From contig JAVZNT010000001.1 of the NCBI GenBank assembly GCA_038882655.1, forward strand, positions 96,001-160,000: a stretch of DNA of 64,000 nt. Reading direction: 5' to 3'. Under the pieces are notes generated by a model. That model saw nothing but the letters and a program-made list of their open reading frames with translations, ran no database searches and had not been told where the DNA came from. The stretch comes from Candidatus Bathyarchaeia archaeon. GTDB taxonomy: Archaea > Thermoproteota > Bathyarchaeia > Bathyarchaeales > Bathycorpusculaceae. Positions 48,475 through 57,448 of the stretch are shown in pieces (position 1 is the stretch's first letter; every line of letters begins with the position of its first letter). The translations under genes and the position numbers were made by a program.

Positions 48475-48769
48475 TAAATTTTAAAGCATTTCACAAGCTA
48501 CACTCGCTTCAGTACTTATTTAAATCAGCTGCATGGTACGCGGGTTTTATAACCAGTCATCTACACAATTACGAACCAAAAACACTTCAGTATAAACCTA
48601 ACTTGCGCATAACAAACAGCAAATTAATAGAATAATAACAATTTTGTTCAGAATAAAATATATCTTTCATCATCTTCACCCGAACAAACTGGAAAACTAT
48701 GCCGCTCTAAAAAAGTTTATTGAACCTCTAGAAACCTTAAATGCTTGCTCAACCCATTTTCAGTTTGAA

Positions 48770-49672
48770 ATGTGCCCAGAAACAAGCAAAAAAGCCGAAG
48801 AAAAATCATTTGAAATAATGACCACCCAGCATTTAATAGAAACAATAAATCAGCTTCAAACAGAAGTTGAAAATCTGAAACAAGAATTAAAAAAAGCCAA
48901 AAGCATACCATCCGGAAAAATAGGTTTAGCCTTCATAATTCTTAGCACATCGGCCCTAATTGCTTCTGTTTTAATTAACTTGTATATCTTAGCCTTCATA
49001 GGTTTAGCCTTAGCCTTTTGGGGTGCCCTTTTCTTTTTCGTGAAGCCAGCGCGATATGCTCAAAGCAGCTTGTTAGCCCTAACAGCAACATCAACATACA
49101 CAACAATCGACAGAATAATAAAAGACTTAAAATTCAAAGGTAAAAGCTATTACATACCACCTTCTCCACAAGCAGATTCGCATGAATACTCTCAGGGCCT
49201 CAAAGACCCTGTAGTTTTCATAGCTGGCGATTCGCGTGGAATACTACCACTAGAGGAGGCTGTAGAAAGCAAGTTTCTACTCAAGAACCCCCACGGAATA
49301 TACATTACTCCACCAGGACTTGGGCTTCTAAAACAGTTTGAAAAAGAATTAAGAAAGGACTTATCGAAGCTTAAATTAACTGAATTATGCAAAATCCTGC
49401 CACCATTAATTGTTGATAATTTGCAATTGGCAAAAAATATTGAAATGCAAGCCAGAGATAGCCATGTTTACCTCAAAATATTAAACTCAACCTATATGGA
49501 TTTATATATCACAGAGGAAAAATTGAAAAGCATTTACTTCCTTGGATGCCCACTCATAAGCGCTATAGCTTGCGCAGTAGCCAAGACTTCTGGAAAAACT
49601 GTTACAGTAGAAGGACAAAAAGTATCTAACGATAAGCAGACAGTCGAAGTTTGGTATCGTATAATGGAATAA
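48770..49672 (+). CDS. Hypothetical membrane protein (paralog of 55848..56771)
   Basis: Coiled coil, two TMs, PPGLGL, LGCPLISAIACA; start set at ATG 48770 by comparison with the paralog. Confidence 0.72.
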   Translation: MCPETSKKAEEKSFEIMTTQHLIETINQLQTEVENLKQELKKAKSIPSGKIGLAFIILSTSALIASVLINLYILAFIGLALAFWGALFFFVKPARYAQSSLLALTATSTYTTIDRIIKDLKFKGKSYYIPPSPQADSHEYSQGLKDPVVFIAGDSRGILPLEEAVESKFLLKNPHGIYITPPGLGLLKQFEKELRKDLSKLKLTELCKILPPLIVDNLQLAKNIEMQARDSHVYLKILNSTYMDLYITEEKLKSIYFLGCPLISAIACAVAKTSGKTVTVEGQKVSNDKQTVEVWYRIME

Positions 49673-49888: not shown

Positions 49889-50659
49889 GTGAAAATATAT
49901 ATGAATATGAAAAGAGGAGAAGTATACATTTCTATAGCCATCGCTTTAATTATAGCCTCAGCATTTATTCAACCTGCATTAGCATGCTACGTCTACGTAG
50001 AAGGATATGTGACATATTGCGGATGTACCCCTGCAGAAGGCCTAATAATCAAAGTCTACTACATACCATCAGTTATTCCCGGTCCCGAACAGCTAGTAGG
50101 AACCGACATAACAGACTCCAGCGGATATTATAGGATAGATTTCCACCTGCCCTACTGGAATGAACAGTACAGAATAGAACTTTGGTCTTCAGATGGCATC
50201 ACACTTTTAAACCAAACAACAATACTATGGGTAATGAATGTTGATCATTATAGGATCGACTTCAAATTGCCTGGCATATGTGGAGAAGGTTTCACGCCAG
50301 GCTTCTGGAGAAACCACTTAGAAATCTGGGTCACCTACACTCCAAGCACGCTTTGGAAAGATGTTTTCGAAGACCCAATATCAATAAGAATTGGTAAAAA
50401 GACAATCACAAATCCCACATTAGGACAAGTAATAATCGCTACAGGCGGAATCAACGAGAAAATAGGCGTATATGACGCATTAGCAAGGCACGCCGTTGCA
50501 GCCCTTCTAAACGCAGCCCACCCCAACGTGGACTACCCAATGACGATAGCCGAAATAATAAACGCAGTCAATGAAGTGATCGGCAACGCTGACTATACAG
50601 ACGCAGCAACATTGAAGAACACTCTAGAAGCGTACAACAACTTTGGCGGCACAATATAA
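49889..50659 (+). CDS. Secreted protein: beta-sandwich domain plus TPGFWRNH helical domain
   Basis: Signal peptide; TDSSGYY; GFTPGFWRNH...LARHAVAALLNAAHP. Confidence 0.65.
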   Translation: MKIYMNMKRGEVYISIAIALIIASAFIQPALACYVYVEGYVTYCGCTPAEGLIIKVYYIPSVIPGPEQLVGTDITDSSGYYRIDFHLPYWNEQYRIELWSSDGITLLNQTTILWVMNVDHYRIDFKLPGICGEGFTPGFWRNHLEIWVTYTPSTLWKDVFEDPISIRIGKKTITNPTLGQVIIATGGINEKIGVYDALARHAVAALLNAAHPNVDYPMTIAEIINAVNEVIGNADYTDAATLKNTLEAYNNFGGTI

Positions 50660-50882: not shown

Positions 50883-51449
50883 TTGGACTGGAAACATATG
50901 AAAATGCCGCTAAAAACTCTGATCGGTTTCATAAGACGGCATCGGAAAACTTTGCTCCTAAGCATAACCGTTTCCTCAGCAACATTGCTGGTGAGCACAA
51001 TAGTTTCCATATGGCTCAACAACTTTCACAACGTGCGCTTGCCAACTCTAGGAACTATAAGAGCAATTGGCGTTGAAGTTTATGGCGGCAATTTAACCAA
51101 CGGTGCACAACTTGACTGGGGAACTATTTACCCGGGAACCTTGACAAACCGCTCATTTTACGTTCAAAGCGAAAGTAACACGCCAGTAACTTTAAGCCTA
51201 AAACAATTAAACTTCACACTCCTAAATTCAAAAGGAGAAAATGTCACTGACTATTTACCATTACCCCCAACAGAAGCATTAAACATCACATGGAACTGTG
51301 GTGGCGTTGTTTTAAACCCTAGACAAGAAACTTTTGCAACATTAACTCTAAACGTAACTAGAGATTTCGGTTTTGTACAGTTTTTGATAAACTATAATGT
51401 GGTTGAGTTTAATTTTGATATCCGCATTGAGGCAAAGCCGATAGAATAA
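50883..51449 (+). CDS. Secreted/anchored beta-rich protein (DWG..PG family)
   Basis: TM then LPTLGTIRAIGVEVY...LDWGTIYPG...LTLNV...FNFDIRI; similar to 57002..57448. Confidence 0.7.
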   Translation: MDWKHMKMPLKTLIGFIRRHRKTLLLSITVSSATLLVSTIVSIWLNNFHNVRLPTLGTIRAIGVEVYGGNLTNGAQLDWGTIYPGTLTNRSFYVQSESNTPVTLSLKQLNFTLLNSKGENVTDYLPLPPTEALNITWNCGGVVLNPRQETFATLTLNVTRDFGFVQFLINYNVVEFNFDIRIEAKPIE

Positions 51450-51548: not shown

Positions 51549-52262
51549 ATGCAAAATACGCCAAACAATGTTATTTCAGTGGTTATTCCAGCCTACAACG
51601 AAGAGAAAACCATTGGAAGCGTCATTGAAGAAACCCTTCAAGTAATGGACAGCTTAGGTTTACCCTATGAAATTATTGTTGTCGATGATGGTTCAACAGA
51701 CGGCACTAAAGAGATAGCAAGCAAATATAAGGCTAGAGTATTATCCAATGGAAGAAATCAAGGAAAGGGTTACGCCCTAAGGAAGGGTTTCCAACATGCT
51801 CGAGGCGAAATAGTTGTAACAATTGACGCTGACGGTTCTCATAAACCAAAGGAAATCCCGGATTTGCTTTATCCGCTATTTAACGGGGCGGACATCGTAG
51901 CTGGTTCAAGATTCTTAGGTAAGGGGGAAGATTATACATCCAAACTTCATATGCTTGGTAACCATCTAATCAATATGACAATAATGTTGCTGACACGAAA
52001 GCTTATCACAGATAGCCAAACAGGTCTAAGAGCCTTTAAAAGAAAATTACTTGAAAAAGTGAATTTAGAATCCTACGGATATGAAATTGAAACCGAAATA
52101 ACCGTTAAGGGACTAAAAAATGGCTTTAAGTTTCAAGAAATCCCGATTAGTTGCCAGAAGAGAGAGCACAGCGTTTCCAGGTTAAGGATACTTTCAGATG
52201 GGTTTAAAATTCTTAAAACAATTCTAACGTCCGTTGCTAAAAACAACAATGGTGATTCTTAG
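51549..52262 (+). CDS. GT2, DPM1-like polyprenol-phosphate glycosyltransferase
   Basis: IPAYNEE, DDGSTDGT, NQGKG.A, DADGSH, GSRF, TDSQTG.RAF. Confidence 0.9.
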   Translation: MQNTPNNVISVVIPAYNEEKTIGSVIEETLQVMDSLGLPYEIIVVDDGSTDGTKEIASKYKARVLSNGRNQGKGYALRKGFQHARGEIVVTIDADGSHKPKEIPDLLYPLFNGADIVAGSRFLGKGEDYTSKLHMLGNHLINMTIMLLTRKLITDSQTGLRAFKRKLLEKVNLESYGYEIETEITVKGLKNGFKFQEIPISCQKREHSVSRLRILSDGFKILKTILTSVAKNNNGDS

Positions 52263-52347: not shown

Positions 52348-52923
52348 GTGTGGTTACCAATGAAAACTGTTTACGTAGCATTGGCCGTTCTATTAATTGG
52401 ACTATTTCTAGCAACAGCTAATATAGCCCATGCACAATGGCCTGCGTTAAGCTCAGGTTATGCTGTAACAACAAACTGGCATGGGAAAGAAGTTCCGCTG
52501 GGCGAAAGCGTCACCGTATGGGCAGGAACAACTGACTCGAATGTTCAAGAAGTGCTGTTCCGATGGAAAAGGCCAGATGAAACAATATTTGTTGAGATTA
52601 ACGTTCCAGTAGTTGGTCCGTACACAACGCCCAACGTTCCTGAAGGCGTGCCACAAGAAATTATTAACTGGGCTAACAGTAACCCAGGCATAAACGTCTA
52701 TTACGCAAATAACACGCAAACTCCAGACACGCTTGGCGATTGGGGCGTTCAAGCTTTCTTCAGAGGACCAGGCGGGAAAACAAAAGCAGGCGTCGAAGAG
52801 ACAATAGCTATAAGGGCAACGTCATTTAATGTCATACCAGACCTTCCCGTAGTCGGTACCGCAGGCGCGGTAACAGCAATGCTTTTAGGTTTAGGATTGT
52901 TTTTCCAGAAAAAGAAACAATAA
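52348..52923 (+). CDS. Secreted protein with C-terminal sorting signal (predicted exosortase substrate)
   Basis: Signal peptide; ends VIPDLPVVGTAGAVTAMLLGLGLFFQKKKQ. Confidence 0.8.
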   Translation: MWLPMKTVYVALAVLLIGLFLATANIAHAQWPALSSGYAVTTNWHGKEVPLGESVTVWAGTTDSNVQEVLFRWKRPDETIFVEINVPVVGPYTTPNVPEGVPQEIINWANSNPGINVYYANNTQTPDTLGDWGVQAFFRGPGGKTKAGVEETIAIRATSFNVIPDLPVVGTAGAVTAMLLGLGLFFQKKKQ

Positions 52924-53074
52924 AACTCTTGAGAACGATTTTAAAACATGCGGTTGTACCAAGATAATGGGTTTTTAATAGAAAATTTTGTTAAAGGGTC
53001 TATACTTGTTTTCCATGTCGATTTATAAGAGTGCGATTTCAAATATTTTATCGACGCACAAAGAGGGGAAAGGA

Positions 53075-53689
53075 TTGAACCTTAAAAAATTGCTGCTAGC
53101 GCTTGTAATTGTTGCTTTTGCTGCTAGTTCTATTTTTATATTAGGTGTCAAAGCGGAGGATGAAATAAACGACTATGACAATGTACTTGCGGAACAAGTA
53201 ATTAATGACATCAACAGCACTGTTAACTCAGGTCTTAATGAAGGAGAAATAAAATATGACCAAAATTACACGCTTTACAGGTTAACAGTGATGCCGAAAA
53301 GTGTTACCGTTGGGCAACAGGTAACTGCAATAGCGGAAACAGATAATAAACATGTGACCCATGTCACATTCGTGTGGGTAAAAGCGTTTGATGGAATCAG
53401 AAAAATAGAAACTGTTCCAGTTTATTTGGAAAACGGTTTGAAAAAAGCTGAAAGCACATACAACCCTGACGAGCGAGGTTCATGGTGGGTGTTCGCTTTG
53501 TTTGAGCAAAGATATGTTGATTCATGTAAATGTGGATGGTTGTTCGCCATGCGGTGGGCATGCTTTAGGGTCACTGGAATCCAACAACAAGTACCAGATT
53601 ATCCAGTGGTTGGCACCGCTGGCGCCGTGACAAGCATGCTTGTGAGTTTAAGTTTATTCCTAAATAAGAAAAAACAAAAGCCCATTTAG
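53075..53689 (+). CDS. Secreted protein with C-terminal sorting signal (predicted exosortase substrate)
   Basis: TTG start before LKKLLLALVIVAFAA; ends QVPDYPVVGTAGAVTSMLVSLSLFLNKKKQKPI. Confidence 0.8.
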   Translation: MNLKKLLLALVIVAFAASSIFILGVKAEDEINDYDNVLAEQVINDINSTVNSGLNEGEIKYDQNYTLYRLTVMPKSVTVGQQVTAIAETDNKHVTHVTFVWVKAFDGIRKIETVPVYLENGLKKAESTYNPDERGSWWVFALFEQRYVDSCKCGWLFAMRWACFRVTGIQQQVPDYPVVGTAGAVTSMLVSLSLFLNKKKQKPI

Positions 53690-53749
53690 CGGGCTCAATT
53701 TATTCTTAAACTTGCTTTCGGTTTTATTTTTGTTTGAAGGGTTGATATC

Positions 53750-55807
53750 GTGAAGAAGGTTCTAGACAAAATTAGGTGGGTAACCAGTATATTGAAGGAT
53801 TATTGGCAACACATTTTAGCCGTATCTCTTTTTCTGTCAATAATTTGGGTGGTTTATTGGCATGACCTAGAAATATTGGCAAATGAAGCTCTTCATACTG
53901 AAGCTCTTTCCCACGTCTTTTTAATACCTCTTTTCGTAGGCGTTCTTCTCTACTTGAAGAGAGATGTGTTTAAGGCTTCGTTTGCTTTAAATTCTCTGCG
54001 GAAGAAATCGGGGAGCATGTTTTTTGACGAGCTTGTCGGATTAAGCCTATGCCTCATAGCCTTTCTCGTCTACTGGTATGGTTCTTACACGCTCTACCCG
54101 TTGGAATATCATATGCTCGCCCTACCCATATTCGTGGCGGGCATTATACTAATTCTCTTTAACCTAAAAGCCTTGAAAGCGCTCACTGTCCCTGTGGTTC
54201 TCCTCATTTTTCTGGTTCCAATTCCCAACGAGATAGCATACACTTTGGGCGGAAGCTTAGCCAACTTTAACACTCAAGCCTCCTACACACTACTGAAGGG
54301 ACTAGGAGTCCCAGTAACATTAAACACAACGTATGGTTCTCCAACCATAATGTTGGTAAAACCCCAAGAGCCGCCTATTCCATTTACGGTGGACATTCCA
54401 TGCTCAGGAATTTATATGTTAACCGCCTTTTCCATGTTCGCCGTTTTCTTAGCGGCGATTGTGCAAGCCTCAACTCTTAAAAAGGCTTGGATTTTCATGC
54501 TTGGATTCGCCATATTCGAGGTTTTAAACATAATCCGCATAACATCCATAGTTTCTGCAGCCTACCTTTTCAGCGAAGAAGTCGCCATGCTGATTTTCCA
54601 TTCAGCGGCAGGCTTGATCCTCACATTTATTGGAATATTCATCACTCTAATTGTGTCTGAAAAGCTATTAGGGATAAAAGTTGCCACCAGCAAGATCGAA
54701 ACGCCTTCATGTTCAGAGTGTAATAAACTGCGGGAGAAATTCCAGAACTTTTGCTTAAACTGTGGAAGGTTCTTTAACCCGTTTAAAAAGAAGCCCTCTA
54801 AAATTTTTTGGACAAAACTAATACTGCTGCTGGTCGGCTGTTTTCTAATATCCTTGAGTGTCAACGCACCAGTTTTCGCGATCTCTAAGGAAACAATGGA
54901 AGTAACCTCGTGGGAAAGAACAACAGAAATTTTGCCGCAGATTCCAGAGCACCGACTCGTTTTTCTATATCGGGATACAGACTATGAACGAATAGCGAAA
55001 CAGGATGCGTCGCTGGTTTACGCCTATTTTCCAGCAAACCTTTCAAGGCCAGTTACTTATGTCCTTATAGGCGTGGCAAGCAGCATCTCAAACCTTCACA
55101 ATTGGGAAGTCTGCCTCATATCATGGCAGACAGCTTACGGACGTTATCCGCTGGTTGAAGTTCTAGTCTCTAAAGACATACAATTACTTGAAGGTAACCA
55201 GTTGATTGCAAGGTACCTAGTTTTTCAAAATTCCGAGGAAAACTATACGCAATTCACCCTTTATTGGTATGAAAAGGCAACATTCAAATTAGGCGCCACC
55301 GTGCAGCAGCGGTACGTTAGAATAAGCCTTATAATATTAGCAGGGAATGCTTTCAGTCATCAACAATATGAAAGCCAGCTTCTAGAGTTTGGAGAGGCCG
55401 TGGCCCACCACTGGGAACCAATAAAGACACATTCCTTGTTTTCTTTAGGAATAACCGCGCAACAAACCCTTCTCGTCTTTTCAATAGCCCTCATAATAAT
55501 CACAAAAGTAGCCCAGTCCACTCACGAGTGGCGCAAAAAAATGAATAACCTTAAAATATTCAACAATCTCGCTTCGCCAACAGATAAGCTTGTGCTTCAG
55601 ACAATCACCGAACTGAGCAAAGCCAAAGGGACCGCCACAACAGCTGAAATAAGCTTTGCAATCAAGAACAAAACTGGAAAAACATTGAGACTTGAAAGGC
55701 TTGTAGAACGGTTAAACCGCCTACAAGAATATAATTTCGTAAAAATGGATATAACCGCGAACAATAACAAGCCTCTACTAGTTTGGAAAAGTTTAGTAAA
55801 CCTCTAG
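53750..55807 (+). CDS. Exosortase/archaeosortase family protein, multidomain
   Basis: SHVFLIP, FLVPIP; catalytic triad pattern VDIPCSG, LNIIRI, IFHSAAG; then CxxC..CxxC, HNWEVC, YWY and a C-terminal wHTH-like region. Confidence 0.88.
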   Translation: MKKVLDKIRWVTSILKDYWQHILAVSLFLSIIWVVYWHDLEILANEALHTEALSHVFLIPLFVGVLLYLKRDVFKASFALNSLRKKSGSMFFDELVGLSLCLIAFLVYWYGSYTLYPLEYHMLALPIFVAGIILILFNLKALKALTVPVVLLIFLVPIPNEIAYTLGGSLANFNTQASYTLLKGLGVPVTLNTTYGSPTIMLVKPQEPPIPFTVDIPCSGIYMLTAFSMFAVFLAAIVQASTLKKAWIFMLGFAIFEVLNIIRITSIVSAAYLFSEEVAMLIFHSAAGLILTFIGIFITLIVSEKLLGIKVATSKIETPSCSECNKLREKFQNFCLNCGRFFNPFKKKPSKIFWTKLILLLVGCFLISLSVNAPVFAISKETMEVTSWERTTEILPQIPEHRLVFLYRDTDYERIAKQDASLVYAYFPANLSRPVTYVLIGVASSISNLHNWEVCLISWQTAYGRYPLVEVLVSKDIQLLEGNQLIARYLVFQNSEENYTQFTLYWYEKATFKLGATVQQRYVRISLIILAGNAFSHQQYESQLLEFGEAVAHHWEPIKTHSLFSLGITAQQTLLVFSIALIIITKVAQSTHEWRKKMNNLKIFNNLASPTDKLVLQTITELSKAKGTATTAEISFAIKNKTGKTLRLERLVERLNRLQEYNFVKMDITANNNKPLLVWKSLVNL

Positions 55808-55847: not shown

Positions 55848-56771
55848 ATGTGCCCAAAACCGAAAAAAGAGAGAACAATCAAAAAATCTGAGGATAAATT
55901 ATACGAATTAACAACCACGCAGCATCTAGTTGAAACGATTAAGCAGCTTCAGACGGAAATCGAAGATTTAAAAGCAGAATTGAAGAAGGTTAAGAGTATC
56001 CCAACTGGAAAAATAGGTTTAGCCTTCATAATTCTAGGCGTATTAGCATTCATCTTCGCTATGTCATATGACTCAAACATTTTAGCCTTTATAGGTTTAG
56101 GTTTAACCTTTTGGGGTGCTCTCTTCTTTTTTATAAGACCAGCAAAATACGCCCAAAGTAGTCTATTAGATTCAACAGCAGTCTCCACTTATACAACAAC
56201 CGACAGAATAATAAAGGACCTAAAATTTAAAGGCAAAAGCTACTACATACCACCGTACCCAAAAGAAGTTTACCTTCCTGAATATCTTAAAGGACTAAAA
56301 GAACCAGTAGTTTTCATTTCGGCCGACACTGGTGGTATGCCATCTATAGAAGAACTTGCTAAAAGCAAATTTCTACTCGCAAACCCAAAGGGAATATGTA
56401 TAGTCCCACCTGGTCTAGGACTGTTGACCAAGTTCGAGAATGAGCTTAGAAAGGATATGGCAAAGTTTCCGTTAAATGAATTATGTGAAATCCTTCCGTC
56501 AATAATTACCGAGAACTTACAGTTAGCAAAAGAAATGGAGATCAAGGTTGAAGACCGCGGAGTTTACTTAAAAATGTTGGACGCTGTATATATGAACCTT
56601 TATAGTGCAGAAAGAAATCTGATAAGCATCCATCGCCTTGGATGTCCTATTATAAGTGCGATAGCATGTGCGCTGTCTAAGGCTGCAGGAAAAATTGTTA
56701 CAATCCAGAGGGACAATGTTTCCCCCGATGGCCAAACTATTGAGGTTTGGTACCGTTTCATGGAGGCGTAA
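55848..56771 (+). CDS. Hypothetical membrane protein (paralog of 48770..49672)
   Basis: TTQHL.ETI.QLQTE, GKIGLAFIIL, FWGALFFF, PPGLGL, LGCPIISAIACA. Confidence 0.75.
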   Translation: MCPKPKKERTIKKSEDKLYELTTTQHLVETIKQLQTEIEDLKAELKKVKSIPTGKIGLAFIILGVLAFIFAMSYDSNILAFIGLGLTFWGALFFFIRPAKYAQSSLLDSTAVSTYTTTDRIIKDLKFKGKSYYIPPYPKEVYLPEYLKGLKEPVVFISADTGGMPSIEELAKSKFLLANPKGICIVPPGLGLLTKFENELRKDMAKFPLNELCEILPSIITENLQLAKEMEIKVEDRGVYLKMLDAVYMNLYSAERNLISIHRLGCPIISAIACALSKAAGKIVTIQRDNVSPDGQTIEVWYRFMEA

Positions 56772-57001: not shown

Positions 57002-57448
57002 CTACTGCTCTGTCCCGGATATAATTATGCTAAATGAAAAGTTTGTTATTCCACTGATGGCTGGGTTAACACTTAAAGTTAAATTTACGCCGACAATATG
57101 GCCGGCATTTAAGACGTAGCCACTACGGTCCCATGTCACTGTGATATAGTTTGCAGCTGCAGCGGGAGACCACCCAGAAGTTGTCATACTCAAGACAACG
57201 GGCACTGTTCCGTTGTTACGTACGTAAATAGTTTTGGTCACAGTTTCTCCAGGTGCTAGCATTCCCCAATCTATGGTTGTAACAGGACTTGTCCCGTTAC
57301 TATACCAGTAAACACTCACCCCAGCTGCTTTAATAGTTGCAGTATTATGGAATGAATATAACGCTGTAAGTGCACTTAAAGCAACTGCAACAAATGTTAC
57401 TGTAACGATGGTCAATAGCATACCTACCTTGATTCGTTGCATAGCCAT
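57002..57448 (-). CDS. Secreted beta-rich protein (DWG..PG family; candidate fibre subunit)
   Basis: Signal then FHNTATIKAAGVSVY...IDWGMLAPG...IYVRNNGTVP...LTLSV...FSFSIII. Confidence 0.75.
   Translation of the reverse strand: MAMQRIKVGMLLTIVTVTFVAVALSALTALYSFHNTATIKAAGVSVYWYSNGTSPVTTIDWGMLAPGETVTKTIYVRNNGTVPVVLSMTTSGWSPAAAANYITVTWDRSGYVLNAGHIVGVNLTLSVNPAISGITNFSFSIIISGTEQ

Follow-up and report, generated by a model that had tools for sequence, protein, structure and literature searches.

The window analysed here is a stretch of 64,000 nucleotides from a Candidatus Bathyarchaeia archaeon (assembly GCA_038882655.1), an uncultured inhabitant of hot springs whose genome sequence comprises 1.02 Mb, is 84% complete and has roughly 40% G+C. 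Between positions 52348 and 55807 of its forward strand lie two small genes whose products end in closely similar C-terminal tails and, directly downstream of both, the gene for a 685-residue protein of the exosortase family (53750-55807). A first-pass annotation had proposed that the tails of these secreted proteins, each composed of a motif, a membrane helix and a basic end, are a distinct or variant sorting signal paired with the neighbouring enzyme, and the coordinates and ends of the genes are exactly as it had given them. Here, we describe this candidate sorting system at its own locus and in related genomes, and compare it with the systems that are already catalogued.

Two tailed proteins beside an exosortase

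The first putative substrate, encoded by open reading frame 1 (ORF1; 52348..52923, + strand), has 191 residues and comprises an N-terminal signal peptide, one immunoglobulin (Ig)-like beta-sandwich and, after almost no linker, a putative sorting tail (52834..52920, + strand). The signature starts as IPDLPVVGTAGAVT.. and the full C-terminal end is IPDLPVVGTAGAVTAMLLGLGLFFQKKKQ, that is, an IPDLP-VVGTAGA motif, a transmembrane (TM) helix and a closing KKKQ. The second putative substrate (ORF2; 52988..53689, + strand) has 233 residues when read from the first TTG, and the end of its domain is Cys-rich; its true start is uncertain and probably lies later than that TTG, just ahead of the hydrophobic segment KKLLLALVIV... 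The tail of ORF2 (53591..53686, + strand) starts as VPDYPVVGTAGAVT.. and reads in full VPDYPVVGTAGAVTSMLVSLSLFLNKKKQKPI, with a VPDYP-VVGTAGA motif, a TM helix and a final KKKQKPI; in both proteins, then, a TM helix and a Lys cluster come after the signature. The tail profile, which was a profile of 52 tails in all genome-wide searches, scores the two tails at 59 bits (E 6.3e-16) and 55.8 bits (E 6.3e-15), respectively, and has no other match in this genome at E<=0.01. Likewise, a GTAG-type tail is found in only 2 of the 10,814 six-frame ORFs of the genome, namely ORF1 and ORF2.

The two proteins align as distant paralogues in an alignment with 26 relatives, which agrees with the caveat of the first-pass annotation that they share a weakly similar Ig-like domain. 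The AlphaFold2 (AF2) model of ORF1 (predicted local distance difference test, pLDDT, 88.9) has strands between residues 38 and 163 and a helix at residues 169-190. The modelled fold is an Ig-like sandwich, for which Foldseek matches CARDB, filamin and CBM domains (E 3e-4 to 1e-3), and its last strand (..RATSFNV) runs almost directly into the signature. As had been claimed, the tails are more alike than the bodies: a manual count over the 29 positions that they share gives 21 identical residues, whereas the bodies without tails are 26.9% identical over 93 residues (BLASTP E=0.02). The 87 nucleotides of tail DNA differ at 27 sites, of which 17 are third, 8 first and 2 second codon positions, and the earlier remark on the predominance of third positions is thereby borne out. 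Counted as codons, there are 12 silent and 8 residue-changing differences over the tail, and 8 and 1, respectively, in its core of 13 codons, PDxPVVGTAGAVT. Because silent substitutions dominate the core, the likeness of the tails is attributed to selection on the peptide and not to a recent copy of the DNA. The cassette is found nearly identical in hot-spring metagenome contigs, one of which (1,575 nucleotides) spans the ORF1 tail, ORF2 and the start of the sortase gene with zero differences. Two data sets labelled as metatranscriptomes are flagged as probable DNA, and contigs of this sort are no guide to expression.

The 685-residue protein belongs to the exosortases according to PF09721 (Exosortase_EpsH; 106.7 bits, cutoff 25.7) and to the exosortase/archaeosortase signature TIGR04178 (48.1 bits, cutoff 23), both of which describe its polytopic core (residues 1-312; 53750..54685, + strand). 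None of the named subfamily models tried passes its cutoff, as XrtW reaches 82.5 bits (cutoff 425), XrtA 68.8 (208), EpsH 56.3 (105.55) and ArtC 21 (100), and the names given in public databases are generic ('exosortase/archaeosortase family protein'; 425 proteins at E<=1e-5 among 8,000 candidates scored). The enzyme had been described as a Cys-Arg-His exosortase, and these three residues, Cys218 (motif PCSGIY; 54401-54403), Arg263 (N..RIT; 54536-54538) and His284 (FH; 54599-54601), do not vary in either of two orthologue alignments, of 10 and of 43 sequences. The AF2 model (pLDDT 79.9; predicted template modelling score, pTM, 0.75) and the density of Lys and Arg, which alternates between 2.0-2.6 and 0-0.3 per 10 residues in successive loops, together predict a topology with the N-terminus inside the cell, Cys218 where a long outside loop ends, and Arg263 and His284 within the two helices that follow, in the half of each that is nearer the outer face. 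The core therefore shows the polytopic arrangement of a conserved Cys, an Arg and a third basic or His residue predicted near the outer membrane face, and these residues would form the catalytic site.

Three further modules, all encoded on the + strand, follow the core. A Zn-ribbon-like CxxC...CxxC knuckle (residues 318-340; 54701..54769), predicted to be cytoplasmic, has C324, C335 and C338 invariant and C321 conserved in at least 90% of the 43 orthologues, and the Zn-ribbon models of Pfam match it only below threshold (E 0.23-0.66). Between two TM helices lies a predicted extracytoplasmic alpha/beta domain (residues 384-558; 54899..55423), which contains Cys455 (55112-55114, motif WEVCL), invariant in all 43 aligned orthologues. 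This ectodomain matches SciW/EagT6, DcrB, Tsi3, PsbP and 3lyd at middling VIA-align Z scores of 7.5-8.5, and Foldseek gives probabilities up to 0.98 with E values of 0.059 or more. Neither Pfam nor the EpsI model (PF11984) matches the ectodomain, and the EpsI model run over the genome has no match at the sortase; the position of the domain is, we presume, the one that EpsI holds in bacterial fusions. The C-terminal domain (residues 595-685; 55532..55804), also predicted to be cytoplasmic, is well supported by the model as a winged helix, with matches to Orc1/Cdc6 winged helices, MecI, RosR, Fur, ArsR, PadR and MarR (VIA-align Z 10.5-8.5, root-mean-square deviation 1.7-2.9 over 71-90 residues). 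Its region is basic (17 Lys and Arg in residues 591-685), and Pfam gave nothing useful for the winged helix alone. At the level of the whole protein, a search of PDB by sequence with the sortase profile gave nothing (best E 0.48) and Foldseek with the 685-residue model had no match at E<=0.001, structural searches of this kind barely probing the membrane core. A complex prediction for the sortase core (residues 20-312) and ORF1 (residues 31-191) scored 0.00, the mark to be reached being 0.32, which is evidence neither way.

The signal in related genomes

To place the tails in a wider context, 58 orthologous sortase loci were taken from GTDB species representatives, 54 of which are titled Bathyarchaeia, -ota or -ales and the others Thermoproteota, 'uncultured archaeon', Baldrarchaeota or, in one case, a Desulfobacterales bin. 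A hidden Markov model built from 13 tails and searched on the 2,185 ORF C-termini of these loci recovered 57 ORFs at E<=0.01, distributed over 39 of the 58 loci. With two exceptions in each respect (55/57), these ORFs are on the strand of the sortase and no more than 2.5 kb from it, and in 35 of the 39 tail-bearing loci one of them abuts the sortase gene (<=250 bp). Sortase fragments were also seen in bins assigned to Baldrarchaeota, Desulfobacterales and Fervidobacterium (L085, L086 and protein P0192; 44-63% identity to the window enzyme), which are likely mis-binned contigs rather than transfers.

Over 52 tails, the consensus is N-V-[IV]-P-E-x-P-x(-x)-G-T, followed by a helix and then Lys or Arg, with P4 and P7 invariant and G10 conserved in 90% or more. 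In 58 locus tails, the first Pro is followed by Glu (41), Asp (14), Gln (2) or Tyr (1), and six loci have an Asp-type and a Glu-type tail beside one sortase; the Asp of the window proteins is therefore a tolerated minority form. Additionally, VVGTAGA is specific to one family of bodies, and P-[LF]-G-T is found in other families. The original proposal of a variant signal paired with the neighbouring sortase is upheld, and PDxP-VVGTAGA over-specifies the recognised unit, which across the family is [VI]-P-[E>D]-x-P-(x)-x-G. The basic cluster is rich in Lys (159 Lys and 71 Arg over 58 tails), a preference that may reflect a genome of about 40% G+C.

The first-pass annotation had suggested scanning other proteomes for unrelated proteins with the tail, and such proteins exist. 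When the tail-bearing proteins of the loci are deprived of their tails, 58 bodies (chosen with a strict tail cut that leaves out ORF L078_7266) fall into 15 clusters unlinked by BLASTP at 1e-5, and 124 bodies from a worldwide scan fall into 29 clusters at the same threshold. That scan, over 1.84 billion proteins, gave 465 cluster representatives at E<=1e-3, the best 150 of which were looked at closely. Among these 150, the distance from the end of the match to the C-terminus is 0-22 residues without exception (at most 5 in 112), 148 have P-x-x-P, the third signature position is Glu, Asp, Gln or Tyr in a ratio of 132:13:4:1, and two registers are used, P-E-x-P-x-G (89) and P-E-x-P-x-x-G (59). 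A crude hydropathy test detects a hydrophobic segment near the N-terminus in 100 of the 115 full-length carriers, compared with 104 of 621 control ORFs. The carriers range from fragments and 76-residue ORFs to a protein of 936 residues; at L054:7523-7753 and L077:5651-5908 there are ORFs of 76-85 codons from stop to stop, barely more than a sorting tail. Both window proteins belong to the largest body cluster and are thus distant paralogues of one Ig-like family.

The co-occurrence of tail and enzyme, which had also been singled out as a check, was examined in two sets of genomes, with thresholds that were set after the gaps in the scores were visible. Among 40 relatives, a full-length orthologous sortase is present in 10, in a patchy distribution, and 5 further genomes have weak matches only (E 1e-4 to 1e-5); at E<=1e-8, the tail is found in 6 of the 10 full-length cases and in 1 of the remaining 30 genomes. 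Among 150 other genomes of the class, 9 have both, 2 the sortase only, 2 the tail only and 137 neither. For instance, in family f24 the single genome with the sortase among 27 is also the single genome with the tail. Some tail genes are on other contigs or about 21 kb from the sortase, as expected of a sorting signal.

The genome encodes a second sortase of 328 residues (C1:38142-39128 of the source genome G000, equivalent to L001:829-1815 and outside the window), and the cognate enzyme could in principle be this protein and not the adjacent one. It passes TIGR04178 (50.4 bits, cutoff 23), is thaumarchaeosortase-like and otherwise unclassified (53 bits for the thaumarchaeosortase model, cutoff 250), and is present in genome G039, which has a tail and no detected 685-residue sortase. 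However, it is found in 22 of the 40 relatives (with this query, at E<=1e-10) irrespective of the tail, that is, in 5 of 7 genomes with a strong tail and in 17 of 33 others, whereas the corresponding figures for the 685-residue sortase are 6 of 7 and 4 of 33. It was not found in G017 and G031, both of which have strong tails, it is never a neighbour of the tails, and the genome has other tails, of a different type (LEFP..). We thus regard a pairing of the window tails with the 328-residue enzyme as extremely unlikely. Three secreted proteins of G000 with a C-terminal helix, a basic end and a motif of the ..LEFPxS.. or ..IPELQPSE.. kind (C1:184012-185073, + strand; C2:6624-9026, - strand; C12:8804-10495, + strand) are possible substrates of that second sortase; the hydropathy scan from which they came missed both Gly/Thr-rich window tails and serves as a source of leads only.

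In summary, there is a signal that is under protein-level selection, strictly C-terminal and carried by unrelated proteins, and that co-occurs and is co-located with the family of the 685-residue sortase and not with the 328-residue one. We consider it probable that these elements form an exosortase-type system for protein sorting that is specific to Bathyarchaeia and in which the adjacent enzyme sorts both tailed proteins. A simpler reading would be that the tail is a C-terminal membrane anchor and nothing more, conserved but uncleaved, and inherited within a family of small membrane proteins with Ig domains that shares an operon with the sortase by chance. Both carriers in this genome are paralogues, the fold is not separated from the motif by a linker, and among the 111 homologues of the ORF1 body none lacks the tail entirely, a few having it in degenerate form, as such a reading would predict. 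By contrast, the invariant Pro-x-x-Pro and the Gly lie outside the helix and are common to 15 body clusters at the loci and 29 worldwide, the carriers extend from the 76-residue ORFs to the 936-residue protein, and the presence of the tail tracks that of the sortase across families, whereas a mere anchor needs no signature. Consequently, a plain anchor appears very unlikely, and the tail is not, as would have spoken against the original proposal, confined to one paralogue family regardless of the sortase.

Several observations nevertheless weigh against sorting of the tailed proteins by the adjacent enzyme. No tail is present in 19 of the 58 loci, and although many of these have truncated flanks, L038, L043, L064, L069, L076, L080 and L081 have ample ones. 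No tail was detected in two genomes with the sortase, G005 (same genus, 79% complete) and G122, and the tails of G015 are only divergent (E about 1e-4), while G039 and G154 have a tail and no detected sortase. Tails adjacent to sortases served to train the profile, some of the sampled genomes are perhaps the sources of these tails, and related genomes are not independent, so the two-by-two tables overstate the association. This genome has only two carriers, which are distant paralogues of each other, and in ORF1 the near absence of a linker between Ig domain and signature is unlike what is seen in many known substrates. Of the 111 homologues of the ORF1 body, 108 have the tail (at least 20 bits) and 3 a degenerate form; since no tail-less relative was seen, common descent alone could explain the tail in this body family. 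Finally, cleavage and anchoring are argued for every member by analogy alone, and the role assigned to His284 is suggested by its conservation only, the third critical residue of the archaeosortase ArtA being an Arg and not a His.

Two observations on individual genomes may be added. The orphan tail protein of G039 (94% complete, 685-residue sortase not found) is encoded at L097 (contig C124), positions 910-1608, and its signature, VPEIQLAGTAGS.., has Gln for the second Pro. At L022 (G005, contig C33) and L023 (G017, contig C23), both from close relatives, the sortase and its DUF7982 neighbour (see below) are kept without an adjoining substrate gene, and G017 has one on another contig.

Relation to known sorting systems

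The tails could belong to an ordinary catalogued class, such as the bacterial PEP-CTERM or the archaeal PEF-CTERM, and the enzyme could be just another exosortase. The signature does start with V-P-E like signals of the PEP and PEF types, the subfamily models that score best on the enzyme (XrtW, XrtA and EpsH) are bacterial and stand well above ArtC, and the glycan-gene setting is that of PEP-CTERM systems. However, when the 52 tails were scanned alone with the curated CTERM models of NCBIfam release 20, no model gave a significant match; a score above the cutoff of an existing PEF- or PEFG-CTERM model would, according to the first-pass annotation, have refuted its proposal. The PEF-, PEFG-, PGF-, PIP- and VPXXXP-CTERM models match none of the 52 at E<=10, and PEF-CTERM (TIGR03024), run over the whole genome, has no match at the tails and a best one of 12.6 bits elsewhere (cutoff 23). 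Contacts below significance were obtained with PEP-CTERM (5 tails, best E 0.13), Loki-CTERM (2 tails, best E 0.012), PFE-CTERM (1) and Heimdall-CTERM (1), and matches to the LPXTG anchor, in 15 tails, span the helix and the basic end only. The tails do not fit PEP-CTERM (TIGR02595), as they carry P-E/D-x-P, with one extra residue, instead of P-E-P, in addition to a conserved Gly and a Lys-rich end, and the sortase is far under the cutoff of each named subfamily. Membership in a catalogued class is, therefore, unlikely. Since the tails neither reach an existing CTERM model nor are restricted to one paralogue family, the inference of a variant signal for the neighbouring exosortase stands.

The attributes of tripartite C-terminal sorting signals have been listed in section 5 of the preprint by Haft (2023; 10.1101/2023.06.07.544157). 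Attributes 1 and 3-7, that is, C-terminal position, conserved signature, helix, basic cluster, signal peptide and carriers that share only the signal, are found here, the last of them (attribute 7, unrelated carriers) across genomes and not within this genome. Attribute 2, multiple occurrence per genome, is weak, with 2 carriers in this genome and 1-3 in relatives, and attribute 8, homologues that lack the signal or end in a different one, was not seen among the 111 homologues of the ORF1 body. For dedicated systems, the same criteria accept consecutive genes in place of multiplicity (10.1101/2023.06.07.544157), and the consecutive or nearby genes described above agree with this alternative. 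As both carriers in the genome are distant paralogues, the system looks dedicated and not of the one-to-many type. A dedicated system of this kind is JDVT-CTERM with its myxosortase-type protease, which likewise has consecutive genes for enzyme and target and one or few targets per genome; the enzyme there is of an unrelated family, a glutamic-type protease, and the signal here has no invariant Cys.

A close parallel is found in the PEP-CTERM/exosortase systems (XrtA, EpsH) of Gram-negative bacteria, which have a polytopic Cys enzyme of the same superfamily, a tripartite V-P-E signal and a glycan or exopolysaccharide (EPS) gene cluster. By contrast, the host here is archaeal, the signature is P-E/D-x-P-(x)-x-G instead of P-E-P, the end is rich in Lys (Arg is typical of the basic cluster in such signals; 10.1101/2023.06.07.544157), 1-3 mostly adjacent substrates are found per genome instead of 20 or more, and the enzyme adds a Zn ribbon, an ectodomain and a winged helix. 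Exosortase-EpsI fusions (XrtD and XrtW, about 490 residues) also combine a core, a TM segment and an extracytoplasmic domain, and XrtW is the named model that scores best on the enzyme. However, the XrtW and XrtD alignments end at model positions 307 of 494 and 242 of 486, respectively, and the rest of each model, which we take to be its EpsI part, remains unaligned. Additionally, PF11984/DUF3485 has no match here, the fold matches of the ectodomain are those given above (Z 7.5-8.5), and the Zn ribbon, the second TM segment and the winged helix are extra.

Among archaeal systems, the pairings ArtA with PGF-CTERM and ArtC with PEF-CTERM are on record (PMC5244752). The PEF-CTERM/ArtC and VPXXXP-CTERM/ArtB systems of methanogens resemble the present one in having archaeal signals that start with P-E or V-P, but the prolines here are spaced as V-P-x-x-P instead of V-P-x-x-x-P, the ArtC score of 21 bits falls short of the cutoff (100) and, as stated, both CTERM models match none of the tails. 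For ArtA of Haloferax volcanii, it is reported that the tripartite PGF-CTERM signal is cleaved, that a lipid is then attached and that Cys173, Arg214 and Arg253 are critical (PMC9263693). ArtA is alike in being archaeal, in belonging to the same superfamily and in its conserved Cys and Arg, and provides a model for the mechanism proposed below, whereas its signal has the PGF signature and its Arg253 stands against an invariant His284 here. The ArtA model has no match to the 685-residue sortase at E<=1. We know of no description of ArtA with fused modules of the kind found here. Literature searches, judged in part by titles and the beginnings of abstracts, found no publications on this Bathyarchaeia sorting system. 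Tag and enzyme are widespread but uncurated and, as far as we found, unpublished, and in kind they are a PEP-CTERM-like exosortase system and not a new category.

Proposed mechanism and its setting

In the sorting model that we propose, the N-terminal signal peptides would direct the two small proteins to Sec for export, and the C-terminal helix would then hold them in the membrane, the Lys cluster remaining on the cytoplasmic side. In this position, the signature [VI]-P-[D/E]-x-P-x-x-G would lie at the outer membrane face, where Cys218, together with Arg263 and His284, may attack within or just after P-D/E-x-P and release the helix and the Lys tail. The Ig-like domain would be passed to a new anchor, possibly a lipid of the membrane, for which ArtA is the precedent, or a glycan that the neighbouring glycosylation genes supply, and it would sit close to that anchor because almost no linker precedes the signature. 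We infer cleavage, its site and the acceptor by analogy with characterised sortases, and roles for the DUF7982 partner, the Zn ribbon, the ectodomain and the winged helix are likewise putative.

A more far-reaching extension of this model, which we regard as rather improbable, is that the enzyme is also a membrane-tethered sensor or regulator. Cys455 might contribute to the chemistry of transfer, while the cytoplasmic Zn ribbon and winged helix might couple the occupancy or processing of the surface cargo to transcription of the cassette, with its genes for the substrates, DUF7982 and the glycosyltransferase. If true, a sorting enzyme and a one-component signalling protein would be united in a single chain.

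The genes around the three described so far recur with the sortase. Directly downstream of it (55848..56771, + strand) is encoded a 307-residue protein with a coiled coil, two TM segments and a Cys-containing C-terminal domain. Homologues of this DUF7982 (domain of unknown function) partner are present in 44 of the 58 loci, immediately after the sortase in 20 of 21 among the loci listed. In the ESM Atlas, it matches DUF7982 clusters with a score of 0.93, all of them from Archaea and most commonly from Bathyarchaeota. A second paralogue of the DUF7982 type (342 residues; 48644..49672, + strand) recovers the same 44 loci, and both share a conserved LGCP..SA.ACA.AK motif; a literature search for DUF7982 found nothing. 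Directly upstream of the putative substrates, a glycosyltransferase of family 2 (51549..52262, + strand), similar to AglJ and dolichyl-phosphate hexose transferases, reaches 170.8 bits with TIGR04182 (below the cutoff of 325) and 135 bits with PF00535, and is present in 29 of the 58 loci with a median identity of 70%.

Two small proteins complete the recurrent set. One is a beta-rich protein of 188 residues, N-terminally anchored or secreted (50883..51449, + strand; 36/58 loci), for which neither a family in NCBIfam or Pfam nor a solved relative in PDB was found by sequence. The other is a secreted Ig-like protein of 148 residues (57002..57448, - strand; 35/58 loci), with weak sub-threshold matches to choice-of-anchor D, CARDB and HYDIN/VesB Ig-like models and nothing convincing in PDB by sequence. 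Within the cassette, window positions 49889-50659 encode a secreted Cys-rich protein of 256 residues for which none of the 58 related loci has a counterpart and which matches no family. Further upstream, there are more glycosyltransferases, an Asn-synthase-like enzyme, a GFO/IDH/MocA oxidoreductase and a DUF2206 membrane protein, so that the cassette sits in a glycan-synthesis cluster. This setting fits the glycan and EPS gene context in which exosortase loci are described in the preprint cited above (10.1101/2023.06.07.544157).

Taken as a unit, the cassette of DUF7982, the two small Ig-like proteins and the glycosyltransferase of the dolichyl-phosphate type probably builds one surface structure. 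The tag can be converted into an annotation model that would put a name on at least 465 protein clusters. The winged-helix fusion and the invariant Cys of the ectodomain amount to a natural experiment on the function of this accessory domain in exosortases, and sorting of the exosortase type, in a form closest by score to the bacterial Xrt enzymes, would be extended into Archaea with a distinct signature. Bathyarchaeia are abundant and uncultured archaea, whose cell envelope is, to our knowledge and with no search aimed at that point, uncharacterised. For this envelope, the locus provides a testable handle in the form of a putative lineage-wide anchoring enzyme.

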